From contig OY740792.1 of the NCBI GenBank assembly GCA_963514005.1, positions 34,658,001 through 34,722,000 on the forward strand: DNA of 64,000 nucleotides, in the 5' to 3' direction. The stretch is from Raja brachyura. Its lineage: Eukaryota. The translations under genes and the position numbers were made by a program. Shown here one piece after another: positions 3,470-50,305 of this stretch; positions within the stretch are counted from its first letter, which is position 1, and every line of letters starts with the position of its first letter. Below the pieces are notes generated by a model, which did not search any database, was not told the DNA's origin, and was given only the letters and a program-made list of their open reading frames with translations.

Positions 3470-4145
3470 AACAATAAGTGCAGGAATTGGCCATTCGGCC
3501 CTTCGAGCCATTCAATGTGACCATGGCTGATCATCCCCAATCAGTACCCCTTTCCTGCCTTCTCCCCATATCCCCTGACTCCGCTATCTTTTAGAGTTCT
3601 AATGGCCCTGTCCCAAGAGCTCTCCCGAGTTTGCCCTGATTTGAACTCGGAGATTTACGGTAATGGCTGCTCGTCGGTACTCGGGGCTCTCGTGGACATT
3701 TTTCAACATGTTGAAAAATCTTCACGAGTCTTCCCGAGCTAACCTGCCGTTAGCGAGTCTTCCTGAGTACCGGCCGTTAGCGTTAATAGCCGCTAAGAGA
3801 CGTCCCCGAGCTCCGACGTACCCGCTATGTTCATTCTCCGTGCTTACCACGAGTTTGATTTTTGGTAAACTCGGGAGAGCTCTTGGAATGAACTTGTACC
3901 ACGGGACAGGGCCATTACTCTCTCTTGAAGCATCCATAGAACTGGCCTCAACTGCCTTCTGAGGCAGAGAATTCCACAGACTCACAACTCTCTGTGTGAA
4001 AAAGTGTTTGCTCATCTTAGTTCTAAATGGCTTACCCCTTATTCTTCAACTGTGGGCCCCCTGGTTCTGGACTCCCCCAACATCGGGAACATGTTTCCTG
4101 TCTCTGGCGTTTCCAAACTCTTAATAATTTTATATGTTTCAATGT
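3470..4145 (-). mobile_element. CR1/HER1 3' fragment split by a MITE
   Basis: FFTQRVVSLWNSLPQKAVEA motif; CR1 3' UTR (ggccattcggcccttcgagcc). Confidence 0.85.
3602..3915. mobile_element. Non-autonomous DNA transposon (MITE), copy 1
   Basis: Terminal inverted repeats atggccctgtccc/gggacagggccat flanked by TA; homologous inverted copy at 28674-29004. Confidence 0.85.
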
Positions 4146-6226: not shown

Positions 6227-9200
6227 CACGACAACTTAGAAAATTAGAAGATGAAAAATTGATACATAGAATTAGATCTGCGGATGGCGATACCAAAAGA
6301 TATTAATGACAGATTTCTACAATATTATCAAAATCTTTATTCATCTAAATTAACAGGACAAACAGTTGGTATGGAAACATTCCTACAAGAGTGTCAAATT
6401 AACAGTCTAGATCAGGAAGGTAGACATTTGTTAAACGCTGAAATAACAGTAAAAGATATTGAAGAATCAATTAGTTCGTTAAAGAATGGAAAAGCAGCGG
6501 GCCCTGATGGCCTGAGTGCAGAATTTTATAAAAAAGTTCTAGACCTGATTTCCCCAAGATTATATACAGTATATAGATATGCATATGAACAAGGCAAATT
6601 ACCAGATTCTTTAAACGAATCCACAATTACACTCATTCCTAAGGTAGATAAGGATTTGGAAGATCCAGGATCATATAGAGCGATCGCACTTCTAAATACA
6701 GACCAAAAAATATTAACTAAAGTTTTATCTCAGAGATTAAGTTTAGTGATTTCTAAATTAATACATCATGATCAAACAGGTTTTATTCCAAAACGCTATT
6801 CATCCCATAATCTCAGACGCTTGTTTAATATTATATATTCAAAAAGAGTACGGGACAGGGAATTAGCAGTTGTATCGCTAGATGCAGAAAAGGCATTCGA
6901 TCAGGTGGAATGGTTATATTTATTTAATATAATGGAAAAGTTTCAATTGGGGGATAGATTCTGTAAATGGATAAGAATTTTATATTTGAATCCAACGGCA
7001 AGAATCTTAACTAATCAAATATTATCAGCTAAATTTAAGCTCTCTAGGGGATGTAGACAGGGATGTCCGTTATCGCCTTTACTATTTGCTTTGATGATAG
7101 AGCCTTTGGCGGAAAGAATTAGATCTGAACCTGAAATATACGGCTATAATACTGACACAACAACTAACAAAATATCTTTATATGCAGATGACGTTTTGAT
7201 TTATATTACAAAACCGGAAATTAGTATACCTAAGCTGTTTAATGTTATAACTAAATTTGGCACATTTTCAGGATTTAGGATTAATTGGAACAAAAGTGAT
7301 ATTATGCCTATAACAGGAATTAATTTAAATATATTACAACAATATCCATTAAAAATAGTTACAGACAAATTTAAATATTTAGGAATTAATGTAACTAAAT
7401 CTTATAATTCACTAATTAAATCTAATTACCCTCTATTATTAGATAAACTTAAAAAAAATATTCTGTATTGGAAAACACTTCCTATATCCATGATTGGTAG
7501 AATAAATGCTATAAAGATGGTGTTTTTACCACAATTATTATATTTGTTTCAGGCTATTCCTTTTTTTCTCCCAAAGACTTAAAAAAAAATAGATAATATT
7601 ATTTATAGTTTTATTTGGGATTATAAAAATCATAGAATAAGTAAAAAACATTTATGTAAATCTAAGATAAACGGAGGATTAGCACTTCCAAATTTTTTAT
7701 ATTATTTTTGGGCAGTCCAGATTAAGAATATGAATTTTTGGTGGGTAAATATGGATCATGAACCAATGTGGTTAAAGATGGAAAAGGAAGATTGTTTACC
7801 TTATAATGTAGGCTCGATTCTCTTTGCCCCAAAGGAAGTACAAAAAAAAATTTATAGGGACAACCCTATAATTTATAATAATAGACGTATTTGGAAACAA
7901 ATAGTTAAGACTTTACAGCTAGATAATCTCTCACTCAGACTACCAATAACGAATAACCCATTATTTAAACCCTCTATATTGGATGGAGGGTTTAGACATT
8001 GGGATGATTTAGGAATTAAAAGGATAGAGCACCTTTATAGAAAAGGAAAATTTCTTTTATTCCAAGAGTTACAAGATATCTACGGATTGTCTCCGCAACA
8101 CTTGTTTAAGTACTTAGAAATTAGAGATTATATAAAATCCAACACACAAGATTATAAAAATAAAGTACCAGGATTATTAGATGATTTGTTTAATTTGCAC
8201 CCAAATACAGAAAAATTAATAGCCTATATATAACATAATTTTGGATAAGGAGAATCCAACAACTGAAACATATCGTCAAGCATGGGAAAATGAAATTGGT
8301 TTATCCATAACAAAAGAAAATTGGGAAGAAAGTTTACAGCAAATACATCGGTGTTCGTTAAATGCCAGACATACATTGATACAATTCAAAGTATTATATA
8401 GATTACATTATTCAAAAACTAAATTAAATAGTTTCTTTCCCAATCTCTCTTCAATTTGTGATAAATGTAAGAATTTAGAAGCAAATTTAACACACAGTTT
8501 TGCTACATGTCCCAAATTGAATCACTACTGGACAGAAATTTTTAAGGTTATTTCTGAGGTTCTTAAAATTAGATTGGATCCAGACCCAAAGTTATTAATA
8601 CTTGGAATTTTGGATTCAAATTCGGTACTTACAGTAAATCAAAGAAATTTCTTTGATTACTGTTTGATAATAGGGAAAAAAATCATATTGAAATTTTGGA
8701 AGGGAACATTAACCCCCACAATTAAAATGTGGGCGGCAGAAATGTTGGAGACGTTACAATTAGAAAGAATCAGATTTGTCCTATTGGACAAATATAATAC
8801 CTTCGAACAAATATGGTCTCCATATATACAATATCTAGAGAAGTAGCTGTTCTTGACATCACAGCTTGACGGGTACCCTGCGGGACTTGATGAGAATAAC
8901 ATATTCTTATACTAGGATTAATAGGCATGTCTTCATTGATATTATTATTTGTAATAGTTTTAGATACAATATATTTTGTTGATTTTCATTTATATATATA
9001 TATATAATATCTTTTCACTTTCTGTTAACCTTTTTTCCTTTCTCTATTTTCTTTTTCTCTTTTATATAATCAAATTATTATTTAATCACTCTCTTATTGA
9101 TTTAAAACTACTCTATCCTTATCTTTATTTCCTAAAAAAATAGAAGATAATAACTTTCAACGGGTTATTTAAAAAAATATGGAATTAAGTTGATGTTTGT

Positions 9201-27439: not shown

Positions 27440-29258
27440 CTCGGTAACATCCTTGCAGACGGACATGCTGAGGATCTGCAAATCCTTTTATATGGATTTG
27501 TACGACAGAGAGGCCACGGACAGCACTTCCTGTCCTCTATCATGGAGGTCTTGGAGGACAACAATCGGGAGAGTCTGGACCAACCACTGATCCTAGAGGA
27601 GCTGACTGACTCCATTCATTCCTTTGACTCGAGTAAAACTCCCTGAAGTGATGGCTTACCGGCCGAGTTGTATTTGGCTCTGTGGGACTGGGTGGGCCCG
27701 GATCTGCTGGAAGTGTACAACAACATGCTTCTAGCCGGCAGCATGTCAGACTCTATGAGGAAGGGCAGCATCACCCTAATCTACAAGCAGAAGGGGGAGA
27801 TGAAGGATATAAGGAAATTGGAGACCTATCACATTGTTGAATGTTGATTACAAGACCCTAAGACCATCGCCAACCAGTCAAGTCTGCTCTGAGATGAGTG
27901 ATTCGCCGGGACAAAACCTGTACTGTACCTGGCAGGAAAATGTCAGACAGCCTGGCGCTGCTGAGAGATACAATTGCCTACGTGCAGGACAGACGGGTGG
28001 ATGCCTGCCCAGTCAGCTTGGAGCGGGAGAAGTCCTTCGACAGGATATCACACATGTACATGAGGGACGTGCTCTCCAAAATGGGCTTTTGGGAGAGAAT
28101 TGGAAATTGGATCGTACTGCTCCACACCGATATGTGTAGTGCAGTCCAAATCAATGGGTGGGAATGAGACAGCTTCCGTGTCAGGTCTGGAGTCAGGCAG
28201 GGTTGCCCTCTCTCTGCCCAGCTCGTCTGGCAAAATGCCTCCTCGCCAGAACTCACCAACAAGCACCAAGACCTGGCTCGTCTGTCGGTGATTTGAGTCC
28301 TCCCAGTCAGATCCTTCCTGCACCGTCGGAACCTCACTACCAGCGCACGCTGCCCTCGGGACGGCTGCTTTGGAAAGGAGACGGTTTCCCACCTCTTTGC
28401 AGAGTGTGGATTCGCAAAGGGCTAGAGAGGGCTGCAAGGGTCCCTTTCACAGTTTATTCTGTAACCTAAACAGCTCCGTCACTGAGGACTCTGATTTACG
28501 AACTGGTCCCAGGGACGCATTCAGAGACGGACATCAAGTGCTGCTGGAAGGTCATCAACTCGGTGAAAGATGCTCTTTGGTCTACCTGAGCGTTGTTAAC
28601 TACCCAGCGGAGCGAGATGTCCGTCAGGGAATGTTGCTGACTGGCCCACTGCAGACTGCAGGAGTACGTGCTAATGGCCCTGTCCCACGATGTGAGTTCA
28701 TTCAAGAGCTTTCCCGAGTTTGATAAAAAATCAAACTCGTGGTAAGCACGGAGAATGAACATAGCGGGTACGTCAGAGCTCGGGGACGTCTCTCAGCGGC
28801 TCGTAATGCTAACGGCAGGTACTCAGGAAGACTCGCTAACGGCAGGTAAGCTCGCGAAGACTCGTGAAGATTTTATACATGTTGAAATATGCCCACGAGA
28901 ACCCCGAGTACCGACAAGTGGCCATTACCGTAAATCTCAGAGTTCGAATCAAGGCAAACTCGGGAGAACACTTTGAATGAACTCGTACAGTGGGACAGGG
29001 CTTTTAGGAACTCACTCAAGCTCGGTGCAGCCAACGGCAAGCTCAGTGGGGGAGTACCTTCCGCTGTTGGACAGGGGGGGAAGGGTGTGGTGGAGACGCC
29101 CCTCAAAATAAGGGAAGGGATTCCACGCCAGTGGGCCACATGAGTGGCAAGGGTGGGTGGAGACATTTGTGATTTGGGGAAACTGTATTGTATGTATGTG
29201 AAGCTTACGAGAATGTTGGATGGAGTTTTGCAAGGATCATGTATTTATATATTTATTT
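27440..29258 (+). mobile_element. Tx1-clade LINE ORF2 fragment, internally deleted
   Basis: DGLPAELY, ITLIYKQKG, LLNVDYK, EKSFDRISH and VRQGCPLS, jumping to a CPRDGC...HLFAEC zinc knuckle. Confidence 0.85.
28674..29004. mobile_element. Non-autonomous DNA transposon (MITE), copy 2, opposite orientation
   Basis: atggccctgtcccac/gtgggacagggcttt flanked by TA; interior is the reverse complement of 3602-3915. Confidence 0.85.
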
Positions 29259-31119: not shown

Positions 31120-31872
31120 GTGGCGCTGCTGTGGAATGAGGCAGGCGAACGATGATTATGGGGGCTCCGGATGGGGTATTGACCAAAATGGGAAAACCCT
31201 GCATGTCTGTCCTTTTTTTTGTCCAGTTGTAGTTTGCTGTGTTTTTATATTGTTTTTAACTGTGTATGTGCGGGGGGCAGGAACTATTGAGTCTCTTCCC
31301 TGCACGGGAGACCTGACCTTTTCCCTGTCCGGTCTCCGTTGTCGTTGGGGCCTAGCACCGTGGAGTGACCTCCAGCCGGAACGTCCTGGGGGCTCCAGTC
31401 GTGGAGCCTGCCTAGCCTGCGGACTTACCGGGGCTGGCCGGCCTCGGAGCGTGGGGAGCTGTGGCCTCGCTCGACTGCGACCAGACTTCAGGGCTTCGGG
31501 GGCTCCAGCTGCAGGCCTGTGGACGGTGACATCAGGAGCCTGGTGGGAGACCGCATTTTGGAGCCTCCCCGGCAGCAGCTTCTCCCGCCCGAGGTGCGGG
31601 GCTGAAGGCGACCCTGAGCGGGGCCTGACATCACCCGGCGCGGCTTTAACGGCCGCGGGACTTGCCATCACCCGCCGGGGCTTTAATATCGGGAGAAGAT
31701 GGAGAGCAGGGGAGAGACAAGACTTTGCCTTCCATCACAGTGAAGAGGAGATTCACTGTGATGCATGTCTGTGTGAATTGAGTTGGTGTCTTGTAAAATT
31801 GTTTCTTTGTGTTGTATGGCTGCAGAAATCAAAGTTCCTCACGGAAAAATAAAGTTCATTGTATTGTATTGT
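31120..31872 (+). mobile_element. GC-rich non-coding retroposon, diverged subfamily
   Basis: Shares gggcctg(t)acatc and gccttcca(c/t)cacag blocks with 9341-9630; AATAAA and (ATTGT)n tail. Confidence 0.6.
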
Positions 31873-37679: not shown

Positions 37680-39812
37680 GTCATATGCCTTCCAAATCAC
37701 TTATCAGTTTGGCTAAATTGATTGAGTCTTTTGAAAAAGTAACAATGATGATGAAATGAGTGCATTGTTATAGTTTACATGGACTTCAGTGAGGCCTTTG
37801 AAAGGGTCCCACTTGAAAGGCTGATTTAAAAGATAGACATAGGATCCGGAGAAAGGTGGCCAATCCTTCAGTCTGAAGAAGGGTTCCGACCCAAAACATC
37901 ATCATTCTTTATCCCCAGAGATGCTGCCTGACCCACTGAGTTACTCCAGCACTTTGTGTCTATCTTCAATATAAAGTTGGCTTGGTAATAAGAGGGGGTG
38001 ATGGTGGAGGATTATTTTGTGATTGGAAGCTTGTGATCCACAGTGTGCCACATAGATTAGCGCTGAGACCCTTGCTGTTAGTCATATACATGAATGATTT
38101 AAATCTGGGCTAAGGAGGAATGATAAGTAAGTTTGCAGTTGACATGAAATTTGATAGCATTGTTGATAGTGAGGGAGGTACCCTTAAGGTACAGAATGAT
38201 ATTGGTCATCTGTAAATTAAGAAGAGCAATGGCAGATGGATTTAATCCTGATAGGTGTGAGGAGATTCATTTTCACATGTATCCTGACTGGCAGTGCCAG
38301 GGGGTGCATTGTGGAGTACTATAGACCACATTAGGGACTGTGGTACAAGTTCATAGATACCTAAAGATGGCAGCACACATTGATCAGGTGATGAAGAAGG
38401 CATATGGGACACTGGGCTTCATTAGTCAGGGCAGTCAACAGAAGAGCATGGTACAATTAATCAACACTGGTTTGGACACAGCATCCAGTTCTGTGTGCAG
38501 TTCCGGCCCCCACATAACAGGAAAGACGCGATTGCTCTGGCGAGAGTGCAGAGGCGATTCAGCAGGAAATTACCTGGGATAAAATGTCTCCATTTTGAGG
38601 AGAGACTGGAGGAGCTGGATGTGTTTTCCTTGGAGCAGAGGAGGTTGAGGGGGTGTGGTGACCTGATGGAGGTGTACAGGATTATGGGTGGGCTAGATAG
38701 GGTAAATGGTGAGAAACTTTCACCATAATTGAGACATCATACTAAGGGCCCTGGGCCAAACTTGTGGAGTAAGAAAGTTAAAGGTAAAAAAAAAATTCGG
38801 GTAGTAGGTAGTTGGAATCTGGAAAACACTGCCTGAGAAGCTAGTGAAGGGAAGTGCTCTCACATCATTTAAAAGGTAGCCAGATGAACACAAATTGCCA
38901 AGGCATAGAAGACTATGTACCAAGTGGGAGGGATGGCCAGTGTGTGGCTGGCATGGACATGGACATGGTGGGCAGCATGGCCTGTTTCTGTGTGGCATGA
39001 CTCTATGACTTCATCCTCACAGTCAACTCTGCTCATTAATTCATATTTGTCATGCAGGATGTACCTTTCATAAAACCTGGTGACCTGGATTGATTGCATT
39101 AAGCTTCTTGAAATGACAAGGAATTTGGGGACCCTGGCAGATATGTTTGTGTCTTCTTAACCGTGGCTGAGGTATCAGAAGACTGGAGGGTGGCTAATGT
39201 TGTGCCTTTATTTAGGGAGGTCCGCAAGGGCAAGTCAGGGAACCACAGGCCAGTAAGCCTAACATCAGTGGTGGGAAAACTACTGAGGGTGATTCTGAGA
39301 AACAGGATCTCGATGCATGTGGAGAGGAAAAGGCTGATAAGAGGTAGTGAACATAGATTTATGTGTGAGAAATTATGTTTCACAAATTTGATTGAATTTT
39401 GCAAACCAAGAGGATAGATGAATATAAGGTAGGAGACGTGGTTTACATGGACTTTATCAAGACTTGGTCAGGGTCCCGACTGGTCTAGAATGTGAGATCA
39501 CATTGGATTCAGGGTGAATCAGCCAATTGGAAAGAAAAATAACCTGGTGGAAGGAGGCATTGGGCAGCAGCAAAGTGTTGTTTTTCAGATTGGAGCCCTG
39601 TGACCAGTGGTGTGCCGTAGGGATCAGTGTTGGGTCCGCTGCTGTTAACAATTTGGATGAGAATGTAAGTGACATGATTAGTAATTTTGTGGATAGCACC
39701 AAAATTGCCAGTTTTCCTTGGTGACCTTAGAGGGTTACAATATCATGAGGGACCTAGATAAGGTGAATGGTTTAAGGTGAGGGGCGAGATTTAAAGGACA
39801 TCTGAAGGGCAA
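37680..39812 (+). mobile_element. Degenerate CR1 fragments (two copies), with a PLE repeat at about 37868-37970
   Basis: EDWRVANVVPLF, RPVSLTSVVGKL and LARVQRRF peptides; the host CR1 resumes at 44498. Confidence 0.75.
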
Positions 39813-40149
39813 TTTTACTTCGGAGTCACGTGAGTGACTACGTGAAGAACCCCGTACAGCCGTTCGTGCGTCATTGCGTCAGACGTTTTTTGTGCAGACA
39901 GCTGTGGAGCAGCGCAGCTCCTCCATGGTAAGTCTAAAAAAGTTGCAGGTAAGTGCTATTTTTCTTACCTGTTCTAGGTCTCTGCAGGAACCTCCGGGGT
40001 TTCTGCAGTGGATGTTCGCGATAGCCGACAAGGGAACCAGCCGAGGGCTTTGGGGGGGGAAACCCTGGTCCGACCGCGGAAGCGGAGAGCTGGGAAAGTC
40101 GGGTTCGCGATCGGAGTCACTGATAACGCGGTCAGTGACTCCACAGGTT

Positions 40150-40666
40150 GGGTTCCCGGGTAGGGGAAACCCGAGAATAGTGCGGTTTTAGACCGCAGTA
40201 GTCCCTAGGGGATGGGGCTTAACGGACCTGAACGGTCTGCCTGGGTTCCCGGTGGAGGGGAAACCCGAGGATAAGTGCGGTTTTAGACCGCAGTAGTCCC
40301 CAGGGGATGGGGCTTAGCGGACCTGAACGGTCAGCCTGGGTTCCCGGGGAGGGGAAACCCAAGCATATGCGGTTCTAGACCGCAGTAGTCCCCAGCACAT
40401 GGGGTTAAAACTAACCTAAACGGTTAAGCTGGGTTCCCGGTGCAGGGGAAACCCAGGTATATGTGTGGTTCCCAGACCACAGTAGTCCCTAGGTAATGGG
40501 GTTAATTCACATAAATCATTAGCCTGCGTGCCATGAGGGTACCGTGAGTATCTATTTATATATATATATTATATTTATATGGATTCCTGGTGAGGGGAAA
40601 TTCACCTATGGGGTTCTCAAGCTACAGTAATCCCCAGGATATGGGGACAACTGACAAAATAGTCAG
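40150..40666. repeat. Tandem array of about 93-95-bp multi-hairpin units (4 good plus 1 diverged)
   Basis: Units start at 40150, 40243, 40338, 40431 and about 40581. Confidence 0.9.
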
Positions 40667-40714
40667 TACAATTGGGAAAGTTGGGAGATTTCACCTCTAG
40701 GAATTAATTTAGAG

Positions 40715-41243
40715 AGCAGCACTTTTGGGTAGGGCTGCTTCATGGGAATGTCAAGTTATGGCAGTGCCAGCCTATGGGAAAGGCTGTGTCAGCAGTACCT
40801 TTGTTTAGGACTGCTAATGGGGATGCCAAGCTATGGTAGGCTCGCCTGATGGAGAGGCTGTGCCAGCAGTACCTTTGCTCAGGACTGCTCATGGGGATGC
40901 CAAGCTATGGCAGGCTAGCCTATTGGAGAGGCTGTGCCAGCAGCACCTTTGCTCAGGGCTGCTCATGGGGATACCAAACTATGGCAGGCTAGCCTATTGC
41001 AGAGGCGGTGCCAGCAGTACCTTTGCTCAGGACTGCTCTAAGGGAATGCCAAGTTATGGTAGGCTAGCCTATTGGAGAGGTTATGCCAGCAGCACCTTTG
41101 CTCAGGGCTGCTTGATGAGAATGCCAAATCTATGGCAAATACTGGGCTATGGGAAAGTCCGGGCCAGCAGCTACTTTGTTCAGGGCTGCTTCATGGGCAC
41201 TAGGGGTACCTTGTTAGGGCTGCTTTATGGGGATAGCAGTTTA
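40715..41243. repeat. Tandem array of about 74-bp units (about 7 copies)
   Basis: cagcag anchors at 40790, 40864, 40938, 41012, 41087 and 41165. Confidence 0.9.
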
Positions 41244-44200
41244 GTAGGGTATTCCCATTCACAGTGATCATGGGGGATGAGGAGGCATTGTTAGGATAAG
41301 GCAATATAACAGAATGATGACAAAAGTATTCAAAGAAAACTATACACAGTTTAAACGTGCTTGTGCTAAAATCCGCTGTCTAGTCTCAAACTATATTTGA
41401 GAAATTGGGCTCCTCTATCCAGTTAGATTAAGTCCTATCAAATAGATTTGTAGGATGTTGGGATTTGCTTTTAGGTATTCAATTGGCCATGATGCCGGCC
41501 TGGGCAACAGATTGCAGTCAATAAGACTTTGGTAACAGTTGTTGGTATAAAACAGTTCTAGTCGTTGGACTAATTGTTAAGTGCATAGATGCAATTCAGG
41601 TGTGTAAGTAGTGCAACAATTATTTTGTTAAATGGTTGATTAGTAAGTGCCATCTAGGTCATTGTTAACACCAGCTGAAATTAATAATGTCACGATGATG
41701 GACAAACAGTGTTCATTACTGCTCTAGTAGTTGTTAGGTAAACCTTTTATTCTATTGCAAATTGGTGCTAATGGCCTAAATGGGAAATGGTGTCAGCAGA
41801 GCTGTGTAGCAGGCCTGCTTTATGGCTCCCTCATGTAAGAGGTGAGCATGTGGGATTGGTATAGTTTAACGCCGAGTCTGAGGGTATAGCCATAGAGCAT
41901 GCCCAAGAGATCGGGGCATGTGCCAGAGGTCTATGCCTGACAAGAAAGTTACCATCCCAAACACAATATGCAGTGAACACCGCTCTCAGGGGGACATTAC
42001 ATTTGGCTGCCGAATCCTCTATTCAGGTAAGACTTTTCCATAGGTGTAACCTGGAGGGTGAAGCACAAGCTATTGGAACAAGCAAGGTTTCATAGTTCTG
42101 GCAGCAATGCATCCCATGTCTTTTTTGGCAGTAGCGGTTCACTGAAGTTGCTGGCAGCATGAAAGCTGGCCAGAGGTTCCACGCACTGGACTTGTGCTAC
42201 TCTACAATTAAGGGACCACTTGCAGTTTGGTAAGGTGTATACTTAGTTATACAGTACAAATGATTGAGACATTATCAGCTACTTTGAACGGTAAATGTAA
42301 AATGTACAATATTGGGTTTCAAGCAGGTTAGAATTGCACAGGTTCAGTATAAGGACCAAGATTGTCTTGTTAGACTGGCTCGGAAATCGGGCCACAGTTG
42401 CTATTTAAGGTAGTTACCAAGTAGCTGAAAGATCATCTCGAGTTTGGAGATGGAACAGATTTGCATGACTTGCCCAAAAAGTTCTGTTATTAGTATCAAC
42501 TATTTATAGACTCTACGGGCATTGTATGGGCTATAGAGTGATTGGACAAATAAGCATATTGTCATGCTCATGTTCAGGTTGGTGCATTGTGATGATGGCA
42601 TATGTTAGTCACGAGGGTGCAATCGGTTAAAGAATCACTGGAATGGTTACATAATTTTGTTGCCACAGGAGAATCATCAAGTGTGGGTAATGGCAACACA
42701 GAGTTGGTGTTGAATCGCACTGTATTATGAAATTCTGGTTCAATGGAACACCTAATATGAATATATGTGTATACATATGTATGTTGGTTTCATGTTTATT
42801 TCACTGGTTGCAAAATAGTTGGCATAGCAGTGGCAAAAGATACATTCTCGCCAAAAAGGAGCAGGTGGGTCTTTTATGGCTACCTCCATTTTGTCTCATC
42901 ACTCGAGGTTTCAAATAAAGTCATTAAGAGGCTTTAAGTTCTTATTGTGTGATTATGCAAATTGATTCCCGATTTGTTGCAAATAATTATATAACCTTAT
43001 TGGTTATTTTAAACTTGAATTTGCTTGTTCAGCCTGAGGCTTCGGAAATCAGATGTTTCATGATAAACTCAAATTTATGTTCTGCAGGTCTAACAAACTG
43101 TCCTAAGGTTTGGGTTGTTACATCTATCCTTCTATGTGTTCAAAGAGTTTGCATAGCACCAAACGGCTATATTTTCTTTTCCAGGAGATGAAAGAGTTTG
43201 TTATGCTAATGTTCCATGAAAAATGGTATTGATTGCTAATGTTTCGAGTTCATGCTAAATGATTGTCTGTTAATTATAGAGTAATACGGCCATTAATTGG
43301 CTCAATGAGCTTCCTCATTGAATTGGCTGTAACGAACAAGACTCGCTGTCGGGTCCACACCGGTTATCAAGGGGTAGGATAGTTTCAACATAGGTCCCAG
43401 GACCAGTATAATGCCATATGCGATGTTGATATCTGTGAACACTATTTCACCAGGAGGCAGCAACTATATCCTTAAATTTGGCTGGAGTTTATTAGGTAGT
43501 TATCCTTCTGGCACTGGTTTAGTGCAGCAGGTTGTCGCAAAATAATTGTGATGGTACAGGATGATAATGTCTGTAAATTATAATATATAATATGTTATAA
43601 ATACTTGAGCAGACCAGAAGGGGGTCAGGTCTCAAAATAGTCACAGGCATACCAGGGGACCTTTGATAAGGTAAGCACACATGTATACAACAATATGTCA
43701 AGGTCATCAGGAGCTTTGGAGTTCTGAACTAGCAATGTTGTTAGTCACAAAGAATTTGGGAGAACGTATTGTTCATGGCATTCCAGATGAGGAAAACGGA
43801 GTTGTGTTATGCACTAATGGATTCTGTTTCCAGATCTCATTCCACCAGGGCTGCTACAACATCAGCAGCAAGGGTATTTATGTTCCGCTGGGTCGCATTG
43901 TTGCGGCTGGAGTATGGTCCATCGAATGAATCTCCACACATCTGTAATGACCCATTGGTGAACCAGGAGTATTGTTAACTCTATTTATGTTCTGGTTATA
44001 TGTTCCATCTGGGTGAGAGATGGAAATATTATTGTTTCATTTAAACAGCATCGGCATGTTTTACATCTATGTTATGACTGTATGCATTATGAATGTTTTC
44101 CCTTCATTTGTCAATGAAGCAGCTGTGGTTGTGTATCCTCGTTTCACACGGCATGAAATCACAGAGCTTTGAAGTCTTCACGTAGTCACTCACGTGACTC

Positions 44201-44624
44201 CGAAGTAAAATAGTAAGATTAAACGAGAACTTGCCAGTTTGAAGTTTGATCTTTATTTTATGAGGAGTCGAGTTGAGGGACTACGTGCCCTCTGCTCCCA
44301 GCCCTCATAGATTTCATCTGGTAGTTCTAGTCTTTATCTTACACTATACTTCGGTTTGCTGTGATTTCACACCGTTGCTTTGAAGATTGACGCACGAACG
44401 GCTGTACGGGGTTCTTCACGTAGTCCCTCAACTCGACTCCTCATAAAATAAAGATCAAACTTCAAACTGGCAAGTTCTCGTTTAATCTTACTATTTTATC
44501 ACAGTGTAATGAGTATGGAATAAACTGCCAGAGGAAGTGGTGCAGGCAGGTACAATTCCATAATTTAGAACAAATTAGGACAGATTCATGGAATTGAAAA
44601 ATTTAAGCCGTGTGCAGCCAAAGT

Positions 44625-49525: not shown

Positions 49526-50305
49526 GGTACCCGGACGTGGCGTTGAAGGAGTAGGCTCACCAATAGGCTGTGTCGCCTACAAGCCAACTCACCGAAAGGC
49601 TGCTCTGCCGAAAAGCCAAATAACGGACATGACGGGGGTGAATCACCCCGTGTGTAGGTCGGGGTCGGGGGGTGAATCACCCTGGTGTTGGGGTTGTGGT
49701 CCGATGGTGCTGCATTGTGATCAGTGACTCTCACTATGTCGGGCGGAGGGACCAGCCTGTCCCACACCTCTGCTCCACCCGACCCACAGCCTGTCACAGT
49801 GCGGCTGCACAGGGGAGACGAGGCGGAGGGCGGCCGTGGCTGTGGGAGAGTGGGGGCTGTCCCGAGGGATGCGCTCCTTCGGCCGCTTACAACTTAGTGC
49901 TCGGGTTCAGCGTGCCCAGTCACCTATGGCTTGTGTGGGGAAAATGGGAAAATGACCCCCACCCTCCCGTCTCCACCAGCCAGTGATGTGATGGACGCGG
50001 GGGTCTGGACCAATCGCTGACAAGTCCCGACTCCCCAGCAACGTCATGTCCGTTATTTGGCTTTTCAGCAGAGCGGTCTTTCGGTGAGTTGGCTTGTAGG
50101 CGCCGCAACCTTTCGGTGGAGTTACCATTACGGCAGAGCGGCCTTTCGGTGAGTTTGCTTTTAGGCGTCCCGCCCTTTTGGTTAGTTGGCGTTTCGCCTT
50201 TGTACACTTTTGGTTATTTCGCTTTTCGGCTTAGTGCCCGTTCGGTTAGTTGGCTTCCACTTCTTTGCTTCAGCTTCTCGTCCTTCGACGCCACGTCCAC
50301 ACACG
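49526..50305. mobile_element. Fold-back non-autonomous DNA transposon with 8-bp TSD
   Basis: TSD gtcttctg (49518-49525, 50306-50313); subterminal IR ggacgtggcgttgaagga/tccttcgacgccacgtcc; internal IR of about 77 bp. Confidence 0.82.

Follow-up and report, generated by a model that had tools for sequence, protein, structure and literature searches.

The window analysed here is a 64,000-nt stretch of the Raja brachyura genome (contig OY740792.1). The sequence itself has the look of a vertebrate with many CR1-like LINEs, probably a cartilaginous fish. Window self-comparison delimits within it a DIRS1-type element of 4687 nt on the plus strand, at 39812-44498, with ATTTTA at both ends. The element and its parts are laid out as follows.

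39812..44498 (+), whole non-autonomous DIRS1-type element, sitting inside a CR1-like LINE remnant
39812..39873 (+), left inverted terminal repeat, complementary to 44175-44211 at 37/37 positions
39896..40112 (+), structured leader: three hairpins (39896-39935, 39945-39972, 39981-40010) and a pair of splice-donor-like sites
40113..40142 (+), lead hairpin, perfect over 11 bp
40149..40525 (+), array A units 1-4 (u1-u4), starting at 40149, 40242, 40337 and 40430, 93-96 nt long, four hairpins each
40526..40579 (+), spacer of 54 nt with a small hairpin, an AT microsatellite and a donor-like ACC/GTGAGT at 40544
40580..40667 (+), array A unit 5 (u5), 69-74% identical to u1-u4
40715..41260 (+), array B, units of 74-78 nt with three hairpins each, starting at 40715, 40791, 40865, 40939, 41013 and 41088, followed by a partial unit at 41166 and a remnant to about 41260
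41300..44150 (+), decayed interior, probably a remnant of pol (RT/RH/MT) and tyrosine recombinase (YR), judged from stop counts and DIRS-like motifs seen by eye
44175..44287 (+), internal complementary region (ICR) holding the circular junction, left part 44175-44211 and right part 44206-44287
44388..44498 (+), right terminus, an inverted repeat plus right extension, complementary to 44206-44287 at 82/82 positions

By its termini, as read from the sequence, the element is of DIRS1 type; its coding homology is putative. Inverted terminal repeats are present, 39831-39873 being 98% complementary to 44388-44430 over 43 nt. The ICR is complementary both to the 5' start of the element (39812-39848 and 44175-44211, exact over 37/37 nt) and to its 3' end (44206-44287 and 44417-44498, exact over 82/82 nt), and its two halves overlap at the circular junction in ATTTTA, the same letters that are found at both element ends. 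The flanks, each aligned alone, adjoin one another on a second LINE copy within the window, with ATTTT in common; from this paralogous LINE we infer integration at a target matching the junction letters. Termini and ICR are complementary at 119/119 positions (95% upper bound 2.5% divergence). Because none of these positions differs, the long, non-autonomous element is a recent insertion, and the decay of its reading frames and the 5-31% divergence among its repeat units must therefore predate that insertion. The lineage was presumably copied repeatedly by helper proteins, under selection on its cis signals only. Note that the left terminus has kept its CpG at 39824-39873 (o/e 1.66 over 39812-39900) and holds what we take to be E-box- and CRE-like motifs, features consistent with a promoter.

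No intact gag, pol or YR ORF is present, and the element is not an autonomous DIRS1. Indeed, each of the six frames of 41200-44200 contains 51-67 stops, and the sole stop-free frame of at least 120 aa within the element falls in array B. The first-pass annotation had called the element a non-autonomous DIRS, in agreement with its DIRS1-type termini and its lack of coding capacity. Presumed DIRS-like methyltransferase and tyrosine recombinase motifs, recognized by eye, lie in the expected order near 42875, 43400 and 43835, and the interior is probably a pol (RT/RH/MT) and YR remnant. The first-pass annotation had also placed array A where gag is expected; the array does lie between the left terminus and the pol/YR-like remnants, although those remnants are putative, identified from motifs seen by eye. 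Pfam was run on 6 long frames and 27 short ones and PHROGs on 9 fragments; neither these scans nor homologue searches and an Atlas search returned a relevant family for pol or YR. A profile search with one frame of 42602-44149 gave a single match, the database protein P0001, which shows 92% identity to the decayed interior along 65 residues; this match suggests sibling copies with the same decay. No second copy of the element was found within the 64-kb window. The idea of a cargo gene on the minus strand, prompted by an envelope- or capsid-like look, was dropped, its three frames having no Pfam or PDB match. A lone, weak similarity to an array-B unit also turns up in the decayed interior, at 41793-41878 (+), with E 0.028 when the element is searched and 0.38 for the window.

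Elsewhere in the window, an AT-rich, nearly intact LINE ORF2 segment lies in three pieces at 6263-8846 (+), the first of them matching RVT_1 with E 1e-39. A 300-nt MITE-like element forms an inverted pair (3615-3917 and 28672-28973, 89% identical); it has inverted repeats at its ends and a 27-nt tandem repeat inside. The GC-rich stretch at 49556-50254, with 32-nt subterminal-like repeats, an inverted copy and a short-range fold of -2.7 SD, is possibly a non-autonomous DNA transposon. Another GC-rich stretch, at 31251-31750, shows strong short-range folding on the plus strand (-3.0 SD); the 266-aa stop-free frame spanning it had no Pfam match.

The 5' part of the element is densely folded. When base pairs are restricted to a span of 45, 39818-41284 forms a chain of 52 hairpins, and this 1.47 kb supplies, on the sense strand, the top 4 of the 255 GC-corrected bins for short-range folding (-4.6 to -3.4 SD; best minus-strand value -3.1 SD). 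The first 340 nt of the element fold with z -5.3. The lead hairpin at 40113-40142, described earlier as 11 bp and perfect, is exact, with 12 pairs when its closing G-U is included (z -6.4; pairing probability 1.0). In the leader, a donor scan gave two consensus-like sites, ATG/GTAAGT at 39928 and CAG/GTAAGT at 39949. The second is paired to the downstream CTTACCTG in a hairpin with a pairing probability of 0.99, and we take CTTACCTG to resemble the 5' end of U1 snRNA. The arrays would be intronic if the donors at 39928 and 39949 are used. No G-quadruplex motif was found, and a sigma-70 scan, irrelevant to this host, gave 2 sites against 1.1 expected. Two candidates were rejected as not significant: the lead hairpin as a copy of the terminal-repeat hairpin (118/500 shuffles as high) and a "unit 0" in the leader (573/2000).

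Array A (40149-40667) consists of five units of about 94 nt that are 69-95% identical to one another; TRF reports it as a 95-nt repeat at 40149-40505 (3.8 copies, 83% matches). RNAalifold recovers all four stems that had been named per unit. They are as described in u1-u3, whereas u4 has lost stem 4 in register, with 3/6 pairs broken, and u5 shows a single mismatch in stem 2 and no closing pair in stem 4. Of the 129 cells that the 26 named pairs make up, 122 are paired (94.6%), a count reached by 1/500 shuffles, and slid registers give 29-57%. Two of the three compensatory changes proposed by the first-pass annotation, AACC/GGTT in u3 and TGTGGT/ACCACA in u4, proved to be real double changes; the third, CTGAC/GTCAG in u5, did not, since it differs from u2 by just one base at that pair. 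Stem 1 of u5 does contain a true double change, from G-C to A-T. The comparison with shuffled controls, which had been named as a possible refutation, came out in favour of structure: the fold of 40100-40680 beats 100/100 shuffles in all three forms, with z -8.5 for sense RNA, -7.4 for antisense RNA and -6.5 for DNA. In an unrestricted equilibrium fold, 11/18 array A helices have a probability above 0.6 and 7/18 are displaced by inter-unit pairing. Decay and CpG loss increase along 40149-40670: u1 and u2 are 95% identical, whereas identity is down to about 70% at u5. The spacer was rejected as a decayed unit, its similarity being reached by 1657/2000 shuffles, and the array motif had 0 matches in prokaryotic genomes.

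Tandem structured units are also a feature of retrozymes, which the array recalls, and a self-cleaving ribozyme or processing signal of a new type had been put forward as one reading. The consensus fold speaks against it: the units are unbranched strings of hairpins with no enclosing helix. The hammerhead core CUGAnGA has 0 matches on either strand of 39812-41300, and a search of Rfam 15 gave six matches, none of a ribozyme, with E 1.1-8.9 and all far under the gathering threshold. We thus give this reading hardly any credence.

The array reported at 40113-40666 is real, but the interval is too short: a second hairpin array, which had been missed, and the structured leader belong to the feature too. 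TRF identifies array B as a 74-nt repeat at 40715-41197, with about 6.5 units. In its units b1-b6, the six rows on which the pair counts rest, 117/120 cells pair (13/500 shuffles as high). One pair switches between C-G and T-A in step across all six units (counted as one event), another runs C-G, U-G, U-A, and unit 6 carries two further double changes. As a whole, array B folds no better than shuffles in the sense orientation (z -0.67) and with z -3.68 in antisense; in the unrestricted equilibrium fold, five of its seven first helices exceed a probability of 0.6 and two are displaced by inter-unit pairing. CpG is almost entirely lost from array B (o/e 0.09).

No sequence homology between A and B is detectable in either orientation (696/1000 shuffles as high). 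The two arrays nevertheless have a geometry in common: both contain a 25-nt stem of 6+3 bp with one bulged A (on the 3' side in A, on the 5' side in B), a 5-bp hairpin with a CCA-N4-A-TGG core recurs in both, and a B unit has the length and order of an A unit from which one 20-nt hairpin has been left out. Searches with covariance models of the two arrays gave no further significant copies in the 64-kb window, and the highest-ranking non-self matches of the A model lie on B's minus strand (E 0.019-0.49). A 13-mer, TGGGAAAGTYSGG, occurs three times: ahead of array A (40091), ahead of array B (40673) and inside unit b6 (41150).

These comparisons bear on whether the hairpins have specific partners at all. 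Dense hairpins could simply stop ribosome scanning, protect an RNA without ORFs or compact it, and such generic structure would fit the folding of the whole 5' 1.47 kb, the difference in sequence between A and B and the 38 ATGs found in 39812-41400. It accounts less well for loop and linker letters that are partly invariant (GG..AG, CAGTA, TTG) and for a fixed geometry of stem and bulge, and we consider it improbable.

Whether the pairing is conserved beyond what the history of the units would give was assessed with two nulls. In the first, each unit's substitutions were moved randomly among columns of the same base. Array A has 7 broken cells, compared to a mean of 19.7, and array B has 3, compared to 13.7 (0/5000 in each case); when the null was limited to stem columns, the means were 13.0 and 8.1 (P 0 and 0.0002 for A and B, respectively). 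In the stricter null, whole columns were permuted within base and CpG class and refolded, which keeps the relatedness of the units. RNAalifold energies of -32.1 for A (null -20.2 +/- 2.9) and -25.7 for B (null -14.6 +/- 1.9) were reached by 0/1000 permutations each, and the paired-cell counts by 62/1000 (A) and 49/1000 (B). Structure is thus conserved beyond chance in both arrays, and the proposal of a selected structure is supported by consensus energies that beat 1000/1000 permutations in each. Full Watson-Crick double changes amount to three distinct events in A and two in B, one of the five lying in paired CpGs. Taken alone, double changes are marginal (A, 4 pairs, 24/500 shuffles; B, 32/500), and those of array A have P 0.12 under one null and 0.021 under another. 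Because full double changes are few and marginal alone, the signal is mostly one of avoided breakage, with some compensation. The feature is real, structurally constrained and larger than first reported.

The strand on which the structure acts was approached through one-sided changes. Among distinct one-sided stem changes, 11 give G-U and 3 give A-C, as opposed to 11 and 17 in loops, a control that depends on polarity (Fisher p 0.018); against one half, 11/14 G-U gives p 0.029. The sense strand also keeps more pairs than the antisense strand, 122 as against 115 of 129 in A and 117 as against 108 of 120 in B. This bias of G-U over A-C favours sense-strand RNA over ssDNA and disfavours strand-symmetric causes, array B being the more ambiguous of the two. 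Of the "RNA or ssDNA structure" first proposed, it is thus the RNA part that the evidence favours. The whole element is skewed towards G over C and T over A, and this skew could itself favour G-U by mutation.

That skew is one of the points in favour of neutral tandem amplification of a hairpin-rich leader, in which CpG decay, biased deamination or hairpin-templated repair would mimic compensation; the u4 change in paired CpGs and the small number of independent double events are others. CpG decay, already invoked by the first-pass annotation, can indeed account for the u4 change; the remaining four of the five full double changes lie outside CpG and are not explained by it. Moreover, the null that keeps CpG class and base changes is beaten 1000/1000, and templated repair would yield Watson-Crick pairs rather than an excess of G-U. 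Neutrality therefore has a low probability in our estimation.

The same data weigh on two readings at the level of DNA. The structure could act in the single-stranded cDNA intermediate, in priming, second-strand start or recombinase loading: DIRS-1 cDNA is single-stranded according to the portion of PMC7192593 consulted, the DNA fold has z -6.5, and array B folds well on the minus strand. Against this, the sense strand keeps more pairs, the tolerance of G-T is typical of RNA, and diverged units are barely stable with DNA parameters (-3.4 kcal/mol for u5); we judge such a role quite improbable. Alternatively, the units could be tandem double-stranded promoter or enhancer monomers whose inverted repeats are dimer binding sites, for which the 5' UTR repeats of mouse L1 or gypsy offer a precedent. 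The position behind the left terminus would suit such monomers, as would the CpG that the leader and u1-u2 have kept (o/e 0.74-0.78, compared to 0.39 for the window). A strand-asymmetric G-U bias and swaps of base identity with pairing kept are unexpected of DNA sites, and this possibility appears very slight.

We tentatively favour, at a little under an even chance, the view that the array is a multimerized cis signal on the unspliced RNA, bound in trans by helper DIRS proteins, its function being inferred from this one copy. The ORFs would have decayed before insertion, while helper proteins copied the lineage again and again, leaving selection to act on cis signals only. Tandem amplification may then have multiplied small hairpin modules into a multivalent binding platform, to which helper Gag or RT would bind on the full-length transcript, routing it into reverse transcription. 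Since the arrays lie 3' of splice-donor-like sites, one of which is folded away in a hairpin, they could mark unspliced RNA only, as a retroviral packaging signal does. A bolder version, which we think rather unlikely, is that a parasitic DIRS1 lineage swapped gag for two separately amplified, aptamer-like arrays that converged in geometry and out-compete the helper RNA for Gag or RT.

The main rival to this helper-protein reading is that a host factor, bound to the hairpins, keeps an intron-containing, non-coding full-length RNA from being spliced, or exports it, in the manner of the export elements CTE and RTE and of the Xist A-repeat. The structural and strand evidence is the same for both, and the two donor-like sites upstream, one of them sequestered, suit a role in splicing or export. 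However, no Rfam match comes near its gathering score, and a scan gave no strong splice acceptor 3' of the arrays, a weak one near 41264 being visible by eye. This alternative strikes us as unlikely, though less so than generic structure. Considered jointly, the readings in which a sense-RNA structure was selected (a platform for helper proteins, export or splicing control, and generic structure) are, in our judgement, clearly probable.

Several known systems resemble parts of this arrangement. The non-autonomous LTR elements LARD, VL30 and ETn, the export elements CTE and RTE and the Xist A-repeat have either a non-coding interior whose RNA structure is conserved or protein-bound tandem hairpin modules; all of these stand in an LTR or host lncRNA context, unlike the DIRS element described here. 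TOC1 of Chlamydomonas has an internal array of about 76-bp repeats and split direct repeats, not inverted termini and an ICR as here, and we know of no covariation-supported hairpin modules in it. Like the present element, TOC1 is a non-autonomous member of the DIRS order, according to the part of PMC9940879 available. Retroviral packaging and dimerization leaders likewise cluster short stem-loops (SL-A to SL-D in MuLV) around a splice donor in the 5' end region of the genomic RNA (PMC5874298, in the portion available). MuLV-type leaders are not tandemly multimerized and have no sequence or Rfam similarity to the arrays. The element may be likened to a retroviral leader by analogy only.

With the DIRS1-like elements described in the accessible text of PMC3266345 and PMC9210276, the element shares inverted termini with divergent and conserved parts, a right extension, and a two-part ICR whose halves overlap at the circular junction, with the junction letters at both ends; its length (4.7 kb) compares with 4.1-6.2 kb for the Xenopus DIRS1-like families treated there. 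It differs from them in having no gag, pol or YR ORF and, at the usual place of ORF1, about 1.5 kb of hairpins. The words "tandem" and "hairpin" do not occur in the accessible text of either source, and the text of supplement 3 of PMC3266345, as far as available, contains no match to the motif. The available portions of PMC8498967, PMC5941688 and PMC3783388 hold nothing further on arrays. In the largely open-access full-text literature, searches turned up no description of hairpin arrays in DIRS elements, which is weak evidence for their novelty.

What is reported of DIRS-1 bears on the proposed mechanism at several points. PMC7192593, in the portion consulted, describes a DIRS-1 RT that works in trans and poor splicing of a cassette placed between ORF1 and the left repeat; its authors suggest that the 5' end is occupied by retrotransposition factors. 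That portion of this experimental study names no primer. The part of PMC4495291 available reports a splice acceptor inferred on DIRS1 ORF1 sequence co-opted in mammals, and sees no clear homology between DIRS ORF1 and the Gag of retroviruses.

An element that keeps moving without coding capacity shows what is needed in cis: here, a 1.5-kb hairpin domain in addition to the termini and ICR. The arrays point to the question of how DIRS elements choose and prime their RNA, and since the units are short, modular and mutable one by one, the question of the cis signal becomes directly testable. If the arrays are neutral, they are an ordinary repeat in a dead transposon. If the bolder version, with gag swapped for aptamer-like arrays, is true, the DIRS order would thereby have its first defined packaging signal, one in which avidity is achieved by a multimerized RNA signal.
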